From the NCBI GenBank assembly GCA_963762115.1, contig CAVXJH010000006.1, positions 128,001 to 192,000 of the forward strand: 64,000 nt of DNA. Reading direction: 5' to 3'. Positions within the stretch are counted from its first letter, which is position 1, and each line of letters begins with the position of its first letter. This DNA is from Candidatus Babeliales bacterium (lineage in GTDB: Bacteria; Babelota; Babeliae; Babelales; JANWKD01). Positions 17,388 to 54,089 of the stretch are shown one piece after another. The position numbers and the translations under genes were made by a program. The notes under the pieces were generated by a model. It saw only the letters and a program-made list of their open reading frames with translations, ran no database searches and was not told the DNA's origin.

Positions 17388-17840
17388 TTATTTCAGTTTC
17401 TTGATTTCTCTCAAGGTTTCGCGCTTAATATCACGTTCCTTGATAGTTTCTTTTTTACTGACAGCTTTCTTGTGCTTACCGATACCAAGTTCAACTTTCA
17501 CCAAACTTCGTTCATTCAGATAGATTTTTAGGGGGATTACGGTGATTCCTTTACGCGAGATATCACCAACAAGACGGTTCAATTCTCTTGCATGAACCAA
17601 TAATTTACGCGTTCGCGCTGCTGCGCCATCTTTTTTTTGATAGGCTTTATCATAAGGAGAAACGTTACAATTCACTAAAAAAAGCTCGCCATCTTTGATG
17701 TGGGCAAATGAACCAATCAAAGAAATATGCCCAGCTCTAATGGATTTAACCTCATCGCCCGTTAAAACAAGACCTGCCTCAAGGCGATCTAAAATTTCAT
17801 AATCAAAAAAGGCTTTTTTATTCTGAGTAATTATTTTCAT
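17388..17840 (-). CDS. smpB: SsrA-binding protein
   Basis: NKKAFFDYEILDRLEAGLVLTGDEVKSIR, RTRKLL, IKERDIKRE. Confidence 0.97.
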   Translation of the reverse strand: MKIITQNKKAFFDYEILDRLEAGLVLTGDEVKSIRAGHISLIGSFAHIKDGELFLVNCNVSPYDKAYQKKDGAAARTRKLLVHARELNRLVGDISRKGITVIPLKIYLNERSLVKVELGIGKHKKAVSKKETIKERDIKRETLREIKKLK

Positions 17841-37097: not shown

Positions 37098-38747
37098 ATG
37101 CAAAAAACAAGTTTGATTGCAAGTTTAATGCTTGCAACTTTATTACAAACAATCTCACTCAAAGCAAATTTACAAGGTGAATTGATACACCTTACTGATA
37201 CCCTCACTGATCTTGAAATGGCATTAAACATACGACCTCAGCCCCAGCCTGAGCCTAGAAGACAAGTTACGCCAGCACCATCAACAACAACTGCATGCCC
37301 TGTAACGCCTCCCGGAAAAACTTTAAGACGCGTACAATCTGCTTACTTACCTAAACAACCCTTGTCTCAATCCGCTGAAACACCCACTGCGAAACCTAAG
37401 CCTGCCCCACAACCAAGAGCAACTCTTGCACAAACAACTCCTCCCGGCGGTATTCCTGTTGCAAAAAAAATAGAACCAGAAGAATCACCCATCGAAAAAA
37501 TTCAACGTTTAGCTAAAGAAAGACAAGAAAGAAGAAAGAGTCTTGGAGCGCCATTAAAACCATTATCAACTCCTGGAGAATTTCAAATACCTACCCTAAG
37601 ACGCAAACAAGTTAGCCCTAAGAAAGAATCAGTTTTAGATATTTTTCAACTGGTAGACCGAGGCGAAGGCCTTCAAAAAGATTTTATAGTCAAAAAAGAA
37701 ATAAAATTACCTAAACCATTAACTACTGGCATCGATCTATTTATTTCACAACAAGTAAATACCTTAAGTACAGCAGAAGATAAAAAAATAACTGCAGCTG
37801 AGATCAATACATTTATTAATACACGAGTTAAAGATAAAGATTCTACAAATAATCAATTGCAAATTTTTAAGGCTTTAGCAACCATTCTTACCATCGATCC
37901 ATTATTAATACAAACAAGTATAGAAACATTGCGTATTATTAATGTACCAAATGAAGATATATATCAATTGATGGCAGAACTTTACACAGGAAGAGTTGAT
38001 TATTTATCATATGAATTTGAACTTATGCAACAAAATTTAACAAAAAATCCAAATCAAGCTCTCCCAAAAGGAACAAGAGACGCTATAGATGAAGGATTAA
38101 CGTATCCAATTGAAATATCGGGTGAAGTGCAAGATGCACAAATTAAAGCAGAAAAAAACAATGATCGGCTTGCAGGAAACTTCTTCAATAATATAAATAT
38201 CCAATGGGAAAGATTGCTATTATTGCTTAGAGGATTATCAGGACAACAAAAAGAAGCATTACGTAAAGAGGGAATCGATATAGATCAATATATCACTAAT
38301 ATAGAAGAGAATAAATTACGAGCTTACTGTCGTTATGATCCAAAGCTTAGAACAAAAGAGTGTCAACCTTATATTTCTTTTTACCAAGAATTAAACAAAA
38401 TGGCACAAGCTGCCAATGATTTCAAGGAAAATAAATCAAAATATAATCGTAGTACAAGAACATTTGCTATCCAAAATATTATTAATAAATTAAATGCTTT
38501 TGCAATATATGCTCAAGATCCTAAAATTTGCCAAGTCTGTCTTAATGAAGATGCACAAAAAGCTAATGAAGAAAACACGAATAATAATTTTGCTGACATA
38601 GAAACATTATTTAATGATCTTCTTGTGCAAGAACCAAGTAACAAAAAATATTCCGAGACGTTAGAAGTAATAGAATCAATTAAAAGTGATGAAGCCAATC
38701 GAAGATCAAAAGTTAGAAGAGGTGGCGTAGGTTATCAATATCAATAA
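37098..38747 (+). CDS. Secreted hypothetical protein (Pro-rich N-half, helical C-half)
   Basis: Signal peptide then NLQGELIHLTDTLTDLEMAL; 549-aa ORF. Confidence 0.8.
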   Translation: MQKTSLIASLMLATLLQTISLKANLQGELIHLTDTLTDLEMALNIRPQPQPEPRRQVTPAPSTTTACPVTPPGKTLRRVQSAYLPKQPLSQSAETPTAKPKPAPQPRATLAQTTPPGGIPVAKKIEPEESPIEKIQRLAKERQERRKSLGAPLKPLSTPGEFQIPTLRRKQVSPKKESVLDIFQLVDRGEGLQKDFIVKKEIKLPKPLTTGIDLFISQQVNTLSTAEDKKITAAEINTFINTRVKDKDSTNNQLQIFKALATILTIDPLLIQTSIETLRIINVPNEDIYQLMAELYTGRVDYLSYEFELMQQNLTKNPNQALPKGTRDAIDEGLTYPIEISGEVQDAQIKAEKNNDRLAGNFFNNINIQWERLLLLLRGLSGQQKEALRKEGIDIDQYITNIEENKLRAYCRYDPKLRTKECQPYISFYQELNKMAQAANDFKENKSKYNRSTRTFAIQNIINKLNAFAIYAQDPKICQVCLNEDAQKANEENTNNNFADIETLFNDLLVQEPSNKKYSETLEVIESIKSDEANRRSKVRRGGVGYQYQ

Positions 38748-42566: not shown

Positions 42567-43022
42567 TGGTGGAGGCGATGGGAATCGAACCCATGTCCGC
42601 ATCATGTCGGACCCAAGGCGCTACATGCTTAGTTTTCGAATATACAAACGATAACCCTCAAAAACAAAAGATGAAATCGTAGGTTAGTTGCGTGATATTC
42701 TTTTGATTACCCAGCTAAGAAGTCTAACAAAAGAATCTTATCTGATATTATACGTGTCAGCTCAACTGATAAGCACGCCTCGCTGACAAGATCAAACAGA
42801 GGTATTAGCAATAGCCAACTACAGAAGATACTTCACTGAAAGCGTTTCTAAAAACGTTTTGAGCTGTAAATACCACTTCATTAGCTAATGTTTTAACTCT
42901 GGTTGATAGACCAATATTTTGATCTGCATTTATTGTTTTTGACCACTTTTTTTACGAGATCTCAGTCAAAACTCGACATGCTCCTTGCGTCATCTATAAC
43001 ACGTCGAAACCTGGACGCCCCC
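42567..43022 (-). ncRNA. ssrA: tmRNA (456 nt)
   Basis: 5' GGGGGCG..GGTTTCGAC and 3' GGGTTCGATTCCCATCGCCTCCACCA forming an Ala-type acceptor stem with G3-U; internal ATAAAT-GCA resume context. Confidence 0.95.
42805..42927 (-). CDS. tmRNA tag reading frame ADQNIGLSTRVKTLANEVVFTAQNVFRNAFSEVSSVVGYC
   Basis: GCA resume codon after ACAATAAAT, 40 codons to TAA. Confidence 0.75.
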   Translation of the reverse strand, partial: ADQNIGLSTRVKTLANEVVFTAQNVFRNAFSEVSSVVGYC

Positions 43023-43142
43023 AAAAATTTCAAAGAAATCTTAATTTTTCATTTCTAATTGTAATGTTTATAGGGTGTTTTGTCAAGTATGCTTTAGCAA
43101 GCTACTAATTTTTTGATTAAAAAGATAGGCGCTTAATTTTAA

Positions 43143-51069: not shown

Positions 51070-52239
51070 TTACCACTTAAATTGCGTTTTTTCTTCTCCT
51101 CCCAATCCAAGTTTTATTGGCTCAATAATTAAATTATAAAAACTCTCTTTATTTTCTTGTAATTGCGATAGTAAACCATCAATGAATTCGTAAATAGTAC
51201 CCATCTTTGCATTATATGGTGATAATCGATATTTTTCATCTCTCCAGGCGTCACTTCTATTATTACTCTTAAAATCACTTATTTTTCTATGCAAGACATC
51301 AAAATTATTAGATATCGCATATAAAAATGGCAATATTTCTTTTTTATAGAGATCAGGAAAGCGTTCCATTAATGATGTGTTAACAAAAACCGTAAATTTA
51401 GTTATACCAATATTTGGCAATAGTATAGAATCAAAATCTTTTGGCTTAATATCTTTATTTTTCAATATATTAAGATCATTTAAAAAATTGTCACTTGCTT
51501 CCTTGAATGTTTCTAATGCTTCTTTTGCTTTTTCAAGTTTATTTTTAAGAACAATCTCATCTGATGATTCTTCTTTTTCAAGTCCCAATCTTCTCCCCAA
51601 CTCTAACCTGAACTGTTCTGGATAATCTTTCATAAAAAATTCTGACAACGTTTCTACCATTTGCTTTATATTTATTGTTCGCATGCCCTGACCTTGCAAA
51701 GAGTGAACCATACTATTTTTATTATAATCTTGGTGATGTTGTAACCCACTCATTTGAACAACCTTGTTAAGACGATCTTTAGCATCCTGAAGCGATGTTT
51801 TTGCTTTTTCAAAAATGGCAAAAGCCTTTTTTTGTGTATCTTCTGAGACTTGAACTTTTTTCTTTTGCAAATCTTGGACAATAGCATTAAGCTTTCCCTT
51901 AAATGCATTAAGGGTACCTAATAAATCGCTATATTCTTCATACAAAGACTCTATTATTTTTTTATCAAAAGATGACACATCTTTTTGCTTATGAAGATGA
52001 TGCCCAAATCCTGCCGCATCCATTCCAAATCTTTTGATTCCTTCTTCAATCTCATTTAATGCATAAATTACTTTTTGGTCTGCATCACTAATAGAAGTGC
52101 TTTGAATTGGCTTTCCAGATTTTATTAAAGCGCTTTCTAATGCATTAAGCCTTCTATGCAATTCTTGCAATTCAGTTTGCAAAGAACCTTGCATTAAAAA
52201 TGGTCTTACTAAAAAAAATATTAAAAATAATCTCTTCAT
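51070..52239 (-). CDS. Secreted alpha-helical hypothetical protein (tandem family)
   Basis: QG|SLQTELQEL motif; shares KDRLNK, FRxxLGRxLG, FPDLYK, FLYxI and PIxxxLG with its neighbour. Confidence 0.8.
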   Translation of the reverse strand: MKRLFLIFFLVRPFLMQGSLQTELQELHRRLNALESALIKSGKPIQSTSISDADQKVIYALNEIEEGIKRFGMDAAGFGHHLHKQKDVSSFDKKIIESLYEEYSDLLGTLNAFKGKLNAIVQDLQKKKVQVSEDTQKKAFAIFEKAKTSLQDAKDRLNKVVQMSGLQHHQDYNKNSMVHSLQGQGMRTINIKQMVETLSEFFMKDYPEQFRLELGRRLGLEKEESSDEIVLKNKLEKAKEALETFKEASDNFLNDLNILKNKDIKPKDFDSILLPNIGITKFTVFVNTSLMERFPDLYKKEILPFLYAISNNFDVLHRKISDFKSNNRSDAWRDEKYRLSPYNAKMGTIYEFIDGLLSQLQENKESFYNLIIEPIKLGLGGEEKTQFKW

Positions 52240-52255
52240 TTAAACTTCTCCTATT

Positions 52256-53416
52256 TTACCAATCGCCCTTTTTAACACCCAATTCATCTTCAATTGGCTT
52301 AACAATAGAGCCATAAAGTATCGCATTGCGCCAAGCATCAAGCCTCTCTTTGATTTCATCAATAAAAGTAGGAAGATGTAATTCTTTTCCCTTATAAGTT
52401 TCATATTTAAGCACAGTTATTTGTTTGTAATTATTTCTGTAAAAATTAGTTAATTTCTCAATTAATTTTTTAATGTTACTATTGATGTGATATAAAAATG
52501 CACGAATATCTTTATATAAATCGGGAAAATAATTAGCCAAACGCTTATTATTAACAAATGATTGAAGCTTAAATTGATCTAAAGCAATAGTTGGATCAGC
52601 TTTCTCTAAGTCTTCAAAATCTTCTTGAGTAGGCATTCCCAACTTAAATTTTTCAAGTTCTTGCAAAAAAACTTTACTTTGATCATTAAATTGTTTAAAC
52701 ATTTCGTCTGCAAAATTCCATTGTTCTAGAATGTATTTTTCATCCACGGATTCTTCTTCTAGAACCCCTAATTTTCTACCCAAATTTTGTCTAAATCTTT
52801 CCAAACACTTGCTCATTGAAAGACCGAGCTTCATTGTAATAAAATCTGCCAAACTAGCATTATGTATAGTCTTACATACAAAACAAGCAATGCTATATTT
52901 TTGATCATAACCAGGTTTTTTCCTAATATTAGTTTCACTAACAATCTTATTCAAACGATCTTTAAAATCTTGAAAAGTGAAATAAATTTCTTGAACAAAA
53001 GCAAACAATTCTCTTTGAACTGACATTGATAAGAGCGCAATGTTTTCTTCAATCAAATTACATTCATTCTCCAATTGCTTATTAAGTTTTATAAATTTTT
53101 CACCCACTAAATCATTTTTAATAACAATATTTTCAACCATATTTTGATCAATTTTTGCTGCATTTCTTAATGCATAAATTTCATTTTCTACTTCATATTC
53201 TTCGTTAACCAATGCCTTTATTTCCATTTTAAATTTTACTAAATTCGCTCGTATTTTTTCTTCAACATTATTACTTTTTAATTGCTTGCTACTCACCCCT
53301 AAATTTAATGTGCGCTCTAGCGCACTAAGCTTTCTCTGCAATTCTTGCAATTCAGTTTGTAAAGAACCCTGTAACAACAATGGCGATAAAAACAATATAA
53401 CCAATAATTTTTTCAT
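52256..53416 (-). CDS. Secreted alpha-helical hypothetical protein (tandem family)
   Basis: QG|SLQTELQELQRKLSALE; paralog of 51070-52239. Confidence 0.8.
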   Translation of the reverse strand: MKKLLVILFLSPLLLQGSLQTELQELQRKLSALERTLNLGVSSKQLKSNNVEEKIRANLVKFKMEIKALVNEEYEVENEIYALRNAAKIDQNMVENIVIKNDLVGEKFIKLNKQLENECNLIEENIALLSMSVQRELFAFVQEIYFTFQDFKDRLNKIVSETNIRKKPGYDQKYSIACFVCKTIHNASLADFITMKLGLSMSKCLERFRQNLGRKLGVLEEESVDEKYILEQWNFADEMFKQFNDQSKVFLQELEKFKLGMPTQEDFEDLEKADPTIALDQFKLQSFVNNKRLANYFPDLYKDIRAFLYHINSNIKKLIEKLTNFYRNNYKQITVLKYETYKGKELHLPTFIDEIKERLDAWRNAILYGSIVKPIEDELGVKKGDW

Positions 53417-53426
53417 CTACGTCCCT

Positions 53427-54089
53427 TTATTTTTGCCAAAGTTCACTATATTCATTCATCGCTCTTTGAGCCCTATCAGTTATTTTTTCAATATCATTTT
53501 GCATGCTAAAAAAAAAATTTTTTAAAATTATAGTTTTATCACCAAAAAAATTTATTAATTTTGCATCTTGCGTCCAATATTCTTTAATGAAAAATGCTGA
53601 TTTTTCATGTGCTAACAAAAATTCATTAAAAAAATTATTAAATTGATTCCAGTCATCTTTTATCTTTTGATAAAGTTGAATTACTTTTGCACCAAATTTT
53701 TCTTTAATATCAAGGTCGTAAGTATATTTATTAATTATTTCCGTAAGACCTATTAACTTATTATGCAGGGAAATTGATTTAGCTTGATATTCCTCAATAA
53801 ATCTTTTTATTTTAAATAATTTTTTTGTATCATCCATTTCTTTTAAAAAATTAATAAGATGATCAAAATTATTACGTTGTTTTTGAACAACCTTATTGGT
53901 CTTTTTTAATAACTGCTCAAATTCTTGTTCTATTTCTTTTTCTGTTTTTGGTTTTTGATGTAATAAAACTTGTTCTAGAGCAACAAGATTATCAAATAAC
54001 TCTTGCAAATTTTGTTGCAAAGATGCTTGCACTTCATAAAATGACATACTAAAAACAAAAATTATTCCCCAAGAAACTATTTTTTTCAC
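53427..54089 (-). CDS. Secreted alpha-helical hypothetical protein (tandem family)
   Basis: QA|SLQQNLQELFDNLVALE; GTG start. Confidence 0.75.
   Translation of the reverse strand: MKKIVSWGIIFVFSMSFYEVQASLQQNLQELFDNLVALEQVLLHQKPKTEKEIEQEFEQLLKKTNKVVQKQRNNFDHLINFLKEMDDTKKLFKIKRFIEEYQAKSISLHNKLIGLTEIINKYTYDLDIKEKFGAKVIQLYQKIKDDWNQFNNFFNEFLLAHEKSAFFIKEYWTQDAKLINFFGDKTIILKNFFFSMQNDIEKITDRAQRAMNEYSELWQK

Follow-up and report, generated by a model that had tools for sequence, protein, structure and literature searches.

The tmRNA gene at this locus of a Babeliales genome was predicted, from the letters of the 64,000-nt stretch of DNA analysed here (the window), to encode a 40-residue tag ending in Gly-Tyr-Cys. 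This raises the questions of whether so long a frame is real, how the RNA holds the additional codons, and which protease would read the tag in a phylum, Babelota, whose members are described as intracellular parasites of protists. The genome comprises 1.53 Mb in seven contigs and is 95% complete.

The reading frame of the tag

We gathered tmRNAs from two genome searches, one of 61 relatives and one of 151 genomes drawn from the phylum. They yielded 163 tmRNA sequences, of which 159, from 156 genomes, had a tag called; one further match of the 151-genome search was left out. The sequences without a call were G153 and G155 (apparent frameshifts), G126 (no clear resume site) and G160 (partial). 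The tag frames of G153 (L257) and G155 (L201) carry what appear to be single-base shifts. Fourteen of the called tags were set by hand from the consensus and the expected length, and these 14 lean toward the length law described below.

The tmRNA scored 148.3 bits against RF00023 (43022..42567, model positions 1-374 of 374; gathering score 47) and is the only copy over the cut-off in this genome. Its resume codon is GCA at 42927, and the frame runs to a TAA at 42807-42805 with GYC as the tag end. A wrong resume codon or frame was considered and ruled out by the Rfam alignment, by the resume positions and by the length law. The Rfam consensus resume column coincides with the GCA of the 40-codon frame, with no shift downstream or into another frame, and the resume codon lies at tmRNA position 96 here and at 90-99 across the 159 called tags. 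The hexamer preceding it, ATAAAT, is the commonest in the set (62/159). Among the 149 of the 159 tmRNAs that retain pseudoknot 2, tmRNA length equals 335 + 2.98 x tag codons, with a residual SD of ~7 nt, and 336 nt lie outside the tag in this tmRNA. As the tmRNA grows by three nucleotides for each tag codon, the frame is real and all the extra length is tag. The length law seems to us a stronger argument for the frame than a shuffle test, in which 3.9% of 20,000 shuffles of a 120-nt stretch of the same composition were free of stops by chance. In the 35 tags of at least 28 aa, the other five frames contain on average ~2 stops each.

The check suggested with the original prediction, a run of ARAGORN and Rfam, gave the RF00023 match and no call by ARAGORN, relaxed threshold included; such tmRNAs may therefore be under-annotated. 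An assembly error at the Cys end was considered as well and is unsupported. A 151-nt contig (X3), possibly from the source sample itself, agrees letter for letter with 42724-42874, which rules out a consensus error at the Cys-stop end, and inspection revealed no single indel that would bring back an Ala end. The sigma-70-like promoter upstream of the gene (Table 1) is a consensus match only, and shuffles yield ~2 sites per region at a looser threshold. Contigs from RNA libraries carry sister variants of the tag, and their presence there does not show transcription. The cofactor gene smpB, noted at the outset as part of the same window, was indeed found in it. The tmRNA is intact and likely adds Ala plus the 40 encoded residues to stalled nascent chains.

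Elsewhere in the window, three tandem ORFs (389, 386 and 220 aa; 51070-54089, minus strand) have alike N-termini after a signal-peptide-like start. The start of a 549-aa ORF at 37098 is similar to theirs, and the four may belong to a family of secreted paralogs.

Table 1. Features discussed in the text. Positions are those of the window unless a genome or locus is named; G000 is this genome.
Feature	Position	Strand	Basis or remark
tmRNA (ssrA), one-piece, 456 nt, CCA encoded	42567..43022	-	Rfam RF00023
Tag frame, 40 codons + TAA	42805..42927	-	Translation; resume position and length law in relatives
Resume context ATAAAT, 5′ of the GCA resume codon	42928..42933	-	Rfam consensus resume alignment
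Sigma-70-like promoter TTGACA-17-TACAAT, 11/12	43058..43086	-	Consensus scan; 35 nt upstream of the tmRNA
Predicted 7-bp hairpin, tag codons 1-7	42908..42925	-	Same positions in three genus members
Predicted extended helix 5, irregular 43-bp hairpin, ~115 nt	42791..42907	-	Codons 7-40 and stop
Hypervariable block, codon 13 to just past the stop	42799..42891	-	Comparison with L073; joints in X1, X5, X4, X6, X13
smpB, tmRNA cofactor	17388..17840	-	PF01668, E=3e-49
Two full-length Lon paralogs, 822 and 780 aa	G000:C3:394347-396815 and C6:379981-382323
FtsH, 880 aa, two tandem AAA modules before the M41 peptidase	L304, G000:C3:371530-374169
Paired tmRNAs, G004	L032 2233-2600 and 4384-4823		Tags of 13 and 33 aa
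Paired tmRNAs, G138	L300 980-1339 and 10554-10978		Tags of 9 and 31 aa

A predicted extension of helix 5

When the tag frame plus 15 nt was folded, most of the tag was predicted to lie in one long hairpin at the place of helix 5 (Table 1), with an MFE of -36.0 kcal/mol and z-scores of -3.7 against dinucleotide shuffles and -2.2 against synonymous recodings. The two closest relatives, a genus member (G001) with a 36-aa tag and a metagenome locus (L073) with a 38-aa tag, gave hairpin z-scores of -2.5 and -3.6, respectively, though the sequences differ. The predicted apex is at codons 26-27 in all three, and a C-G pair of the basal stem is swapped for U-A in G001. Native codons beat synonymous recodings at z<-1.64 in 25 of the 35 long tags, and the mean fold z was -2.2 for tags of up to 12 aa and -3.2 for those of at least 28 aa. 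Because short tags fold too, the hairpin would be the ordinary helix 5 scaled up. Helix 5 carries the stop codon and is unwound during tagging (PMC3968760), and the predictions fit a model in which the extra codons are held in a scaled-up version of it.

Tag length across the phylum

The 159 tags range from 6 to 46 aa with a median of 15. While 124 are shorter than 28 aa, 33 have at least 30 aa (in 9 of 21 families), 19 at least 36 and eight at least 40; the tmRNAs of relatives reach 475 nt. The tag had been called exceptional for its length, and it does exceed the 8-35 residues given in two reviews (PMC3968760, PMC8012679), but the eight tags of at least 40 aa show that it is not unique. A 2025 database paper reports a modal tag of 10 aa and discusses very short tags, and the available portions of its text and supplement contain no match for Dependentiae or Babel (PMC11915505); its figshare database draws on GTDB genomes and so probably includes these sequences. 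A full-text literature search turned up no paper that deals with Babelota tags or with the loss of ClpXP in the phylum. In the Babela genome paper a tmRNA is listed and, in the part accessible, 'Clp' occurs nowhere (PMC4378268), and subject terms searched in the accessible part of a TM6 comparative paper (PMC4776705) gave no match. A scan of viral contigs gave 0 matches, and two of the three matches of a metagenome pattern scan (L074 and L075) were discarded as chance matches in non-tmRNA DNA.

Several tmRNAs of the set have peculiarities of their own. The longest tag (46 aa; L037, G045) contains a tandem 9-nt repeat that translates into a three-residue repeat, a visible route of growth. Ten tmRNAs, all of family f6 (e.g., L047, L043 and L051), are without ~55 nt 3′ of the stop, at the site of pseudoknot 2, and the tag frame seems to extend over that region. 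Two genomes of different families, G004 and G138, each carry a short-tag and a long-tag tmRNA gene, both intact and at a short distance from each other (Table 1), and in both genomes an ATPase-like ORF of ~400 aa adjoins the short-tag copy.

Proteases of the phylum and the case for Lon

The original prediction held that the tag would call for a different protease, and the gene inventory bears this out. Using a search that was positive in 10 of 14 controls, clpX was found in none of the 61 relatives and none of 230 phylum genomes. ClpP-like genes were detected at E<=1e-20 in three of the 230 genomes, this one not among them; two lie amid ORFs of phage-like appearance, judged by eye, and the third sits on a small contig of an assembly with 300 contigs. 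A weak ClpP match in this genome turned out to be an SppA/S49 peptidase. HslV was over the cut-off in 0/61 genomes, with one partial match, and was not found in this genome, where the only AAA_2 protein has ClpB as its best match. Lon was found in all 61 genomes, mostly with two matches each, FtsH in 60 of the 61, and Prc in 44/61 and 116/151, this genome having a PDZ/S41 Prc. Of the ATP-dependent proteases searched for, Lon and FtsH are thus the only ones left, and these two also make up the ATP-dependent set of Mycoplasma (PMC8138137). As the absence of ClpXP is common to short-tag members, it permits long tags and does not explain them.

Two other links to tag length were tried and dropped. 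Prc loss is not a general correlate, since Prc is present here and missing in the short-tag families f5 and f14, and the relation to the two-AAA FtsH is not clean. Open frames of ~890 aa like the FtsH of this genome occur in families f1, f2, f3, f5, f11 and f17. Genomes of f16 and f18, with tags of 40-42 aa, have extra Lon-like matches (G019, G021, G038 and G052 are listed), some of them in frames of 1100-1900 aa.

We consider it probable that this lineage, having lost ClpXP, switched to Lon as Mycoplasma did and that the hairpin has driven a relaxed growth of the tag. Lon is proposed as the reader because clpX was not found, because of the Mycoplasma precedent, and because -AFA ends are frequent (the commonest end triplet, 42/159), acidic ends are few (Asp or Glu in the final four residues of 3/159 tags) and long tags have extra aromatics (4.5 per tag vs 1.6 in short ones). 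In M. pneumoniae a 27-aa tag is degraded in vivo by Lon and not by FtsH (PMC8403727). The Lon of Mesoplasma reads an NYAFA end (PMC9382460), which the -AFA ends of the phylum resemble; the sister tags end in -AFA, this tag in -GYC. Acidic terminal residues are disfavoured by Lon (PMC11986505).

Without ClpX, Lon would likely read the tag as it does in Mycoplasma. A tag that need not fit a ClpX pore would have only to stay open, lack an acidic end and be rich in Ala, Phe and Val. Changes on the two arms of helix 5 would let it lengthen or shorten, and this helix is predicted to hold the longer message in folded form up to its unwinding by the ribosome. Lon, with its two paralogs, may then take the tag as a long exposed segment of hydrophobic and aromatic residues, FtsH would be a likely second reader, and the GYC end would be tolerated rather than selected. 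The slow degradation of terminal Cys by Yersinia Lon in one His-degron series (HC 0.34, HS 0.48, HR 0.25; PMC11986505) would count against reading by Lon, and the unusual two-AAA FtsH or the Prc of this genome could be alternative readers.

Amphipathic and membrane-anchor-like tags

The tag had also been described as resembling an amphipathic helix. For this tag alone the periodicity is borderline (p=0.037, and not below 0.05 in a mean-centred scan), and in an unbiased scan five of 36 long tags passed p<0.05, this tag not among them. At the level of the genus the description holds better. The 100-degree moments of residues 7-31 are in phase in the three tags (51, 51 and 67 degrees), with a combined p of 0.0002 obtained on related sequences and a segment chosen post hoc. 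Such a genus-wide pattern is not predicted by pure drift, a point against the relaxed tag growth that we favour. In long tags the hydropathy of the resume frame (0.51) shows no excess over that of frame +1 (0.49).

Tags shaped like a C-terminal membrane anchor were seen in other lineages. A 17-residue window with hydropathy of at least 1.8 is present in 17 tags of at least 25 aa, and in 15 of these it is followed by 2-4 Arg/Lys. The 15 anchor-like tags belong to f3 (5), f6 (9) and f19 (1), three separate places in the tree. Their hydrophobic run has ~17-20 residues, and examples are L044 (G006), L046 (G026), L043 (G009), L047 (G029), L037 (G045) and L295 (G062). For 14 of the 15 the genome has no Prc match, although they represent only ~three lineages.

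Such tags fit a reading that we hold to be considerably less likely than the switch to Lon, namely that FtsH is the main reader and that rescued chains are carried to the membrane by their long tags, amphipathic ones here and anchor-like ones in three lineages. The in-phase moment of the genus tags would agree with it, within the limits just given, as would the two tandem AAA modules of the FtsH in this genome and the expansion of ATP-dependent Zn proteases in Babela (PMC4378268). However, this tag does not resemble a transmembrane segment (its best 19-residue hydropathy is 0.60), FtsH of ~890 aa occurs also in the short-tag genomes G058, G028, G025 and G020, FtsH is of ordinary length in the long-tag genomes of f6 and f18, and in M. 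pneumoniae FtsH depletion left tagged proteins unstabilised (PMC8403727).

A broader idea, which we put forward just as tentatively, is that after phylum-wide ClpXP loss the tag became a hairpin-encoded module, quick to evolve, that addresses rescued proteins to one protease or another. Amphipathic tags of 36-40 aa and anchor-like tags would then lead to FtsH at the membrane, short -AFA tags would lead to Lon, and both routes would be in use in genomes with two tmRNA genes. If this were true, tmRNA would encode a targeting signal and not only a degron.

Variation of the tag on a conserved scaffold

The original prediction made the long frame depend on its conservation in relatives, and the tags of the genus, of 36, 38 and 40 aa, are all long. 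The tags of G001 and L073 start like this tag and both end in -AFA. L073 and this genome agree at 93/95 nt before the tag, at 36/36 nt of codons 1-12 and at 233/238 nt after the stop, while inside the hypervariable block (Table 1) 43 nt are identical and 37 mismatched over ~87 nt. The tmRNA of L073 is thus ~98% identical outside the block and yet encodes a different 38-aa tag; its neighbouring gene is 78% identical. In sequencing runs, of which 8 of the 24 listed were compared, the block is bridged by X1, X4, X5 and X6, where it is 8 letters shorter, just as in L073, and in X13 it is 27 nt shorter. The loose end of X10, read by hand, is an -AFA-stop variant, and X2 does not bridge the tag. There are accordingly at least three tag variants on this near-identical scaffold. 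Judged from these alignments, the long frame is conserved, and the interior and the Cys end are not.

This variability is what would be expected if length were a neutral by-product of RNA hairpin drift, the interior being a spacer and only the last small or hydrophobic residues being of importance. The raw within-genus pN/pS is 0.98, and in 17 of 21 pairs of tmRNAs whose remaining sequence is at least 90% identical, conservation is lower in the tag than in the scaffold; these include pairs of 8 vs 19 and 9 vs 21 aa. Nevertheless, we find this account somewhat less plausible even than reading by FtsH. The clades f6, f18 and f16 retain long tags and conserved features, with pN/pS of 0.60-0.85 in four other long-tag groups, and all genus tags share N16, A22, A29 and F30. 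The long/short label is also clustered, with 16 changes on a tree of the tag-free scaffold, whose bootstrap support is not settled, vs 31.8 for shuffled labels. At least nine of these changes are forced by well-supported branches, on a tree that is blind to gain vs loss.

The C-terminal end

Ala ends 142 of the 159 tags; the last two residues are -FA in 53, -AA in 28, -VA in 20 and -YA in 15. Cys ends five, always with TGC before the stop. The terminal Cys had been taken as a possible signal, which the relatives contradict: the end of the near-identical sister tmRNA is -AFA, as in the other close relative, and GYC is therefore not a conserved signal. On the sequences compared, it is a local and incidental variant. 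In the alignment the GYC codons are the Ala-Phe-Ala-stop of the sisters read one base off, and from these three sequences we infer a recent, compensated one-base register slip of the genus-typical -AFA. It is very improbable that the Cys end serves a new adaptor or protease as a dedicated signal, or that the tag of this strain no longer acts as a degron. Although the end is real in the sequence and Cys arose five times in 159 tags (once more as -YC, in G088), L073, G001 and the X10 variant lack it, and the five cases are in unrelated tags of 12-40 aa with a codon that is a one-base slip of an Ala codon.

Relation to known systems and significance

The switch of tmRNA tags to Lon in Mollicutes was reportedly described by Gur and Sauer in 2008 and by Ge and Karzai in 2009. 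The switch to Lon that we favour for Babelota resembles it in the reduced genome in which no ClpXP was found, in that Lon and FtsH were the sole ATP-dependent proteases found of those searched for, and in an extended tag with frequent -AFA ends (PMC8403727, PMC8138137, PMC9382460). Babelota is an unrelated phylum and differs in tags that reach 40-46 aa, in a labile tag length (6-46 aa) where Mollicute tags are uniformly long, in two Lon matches for most genomes, and in the anchor-like tags or paired tmRNA genes of some lineages. Lon is proposed as the reader by analogy with the Mollicute switch, and we assume the two systems to be convergent.

With the E. coli-type tmRNA (RF00023) this one shares the tRNA-like domain, a pseudoknot scaffold of ~335 nt, the resume context, SmpB and a stop codon associated with helix 5. 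It departs from the E. coli-type ClpXP degron in a tag four times the modal 10 aa, in the lack of an -AA end and in that clpX was not found. Chlamydiae retain ClpXP, and long tmRNAs therefore do not require ClpXP loss. The chlamydial tmRNA, likewise over-long and from an intracellular bacterium, was the longest in a 2005 alignment at 425 nt (PMC1168896).

The overall interpretation of the original prediction is partly supported; what it missed is the RNA-hairpin nature, as predicted here, of the extra length. The pattern is phylum-wide, with this tag as its visible tip, and the record length, the predicted hairpin and the anchor-like tags of relatives are its interesting parts. It provides a second, phylum-scale natural experiment on the fate of the ssrA degron after ClpXP loss. 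In it the encoded tag has been pushed beyond 8-35 aa, to 36-46 aa in 19 of 159 tags, and the RNA is predicted to accommodate this through a helix 5 extended to ~115 nt, for the ribosome to unwind. Because sister tags differ in their ends on a shared scaffold, they make the recognition rules of Lon and FtsH directly testable, and they may also be a source of orthogonal degron-protease pairs like mf-Lon.
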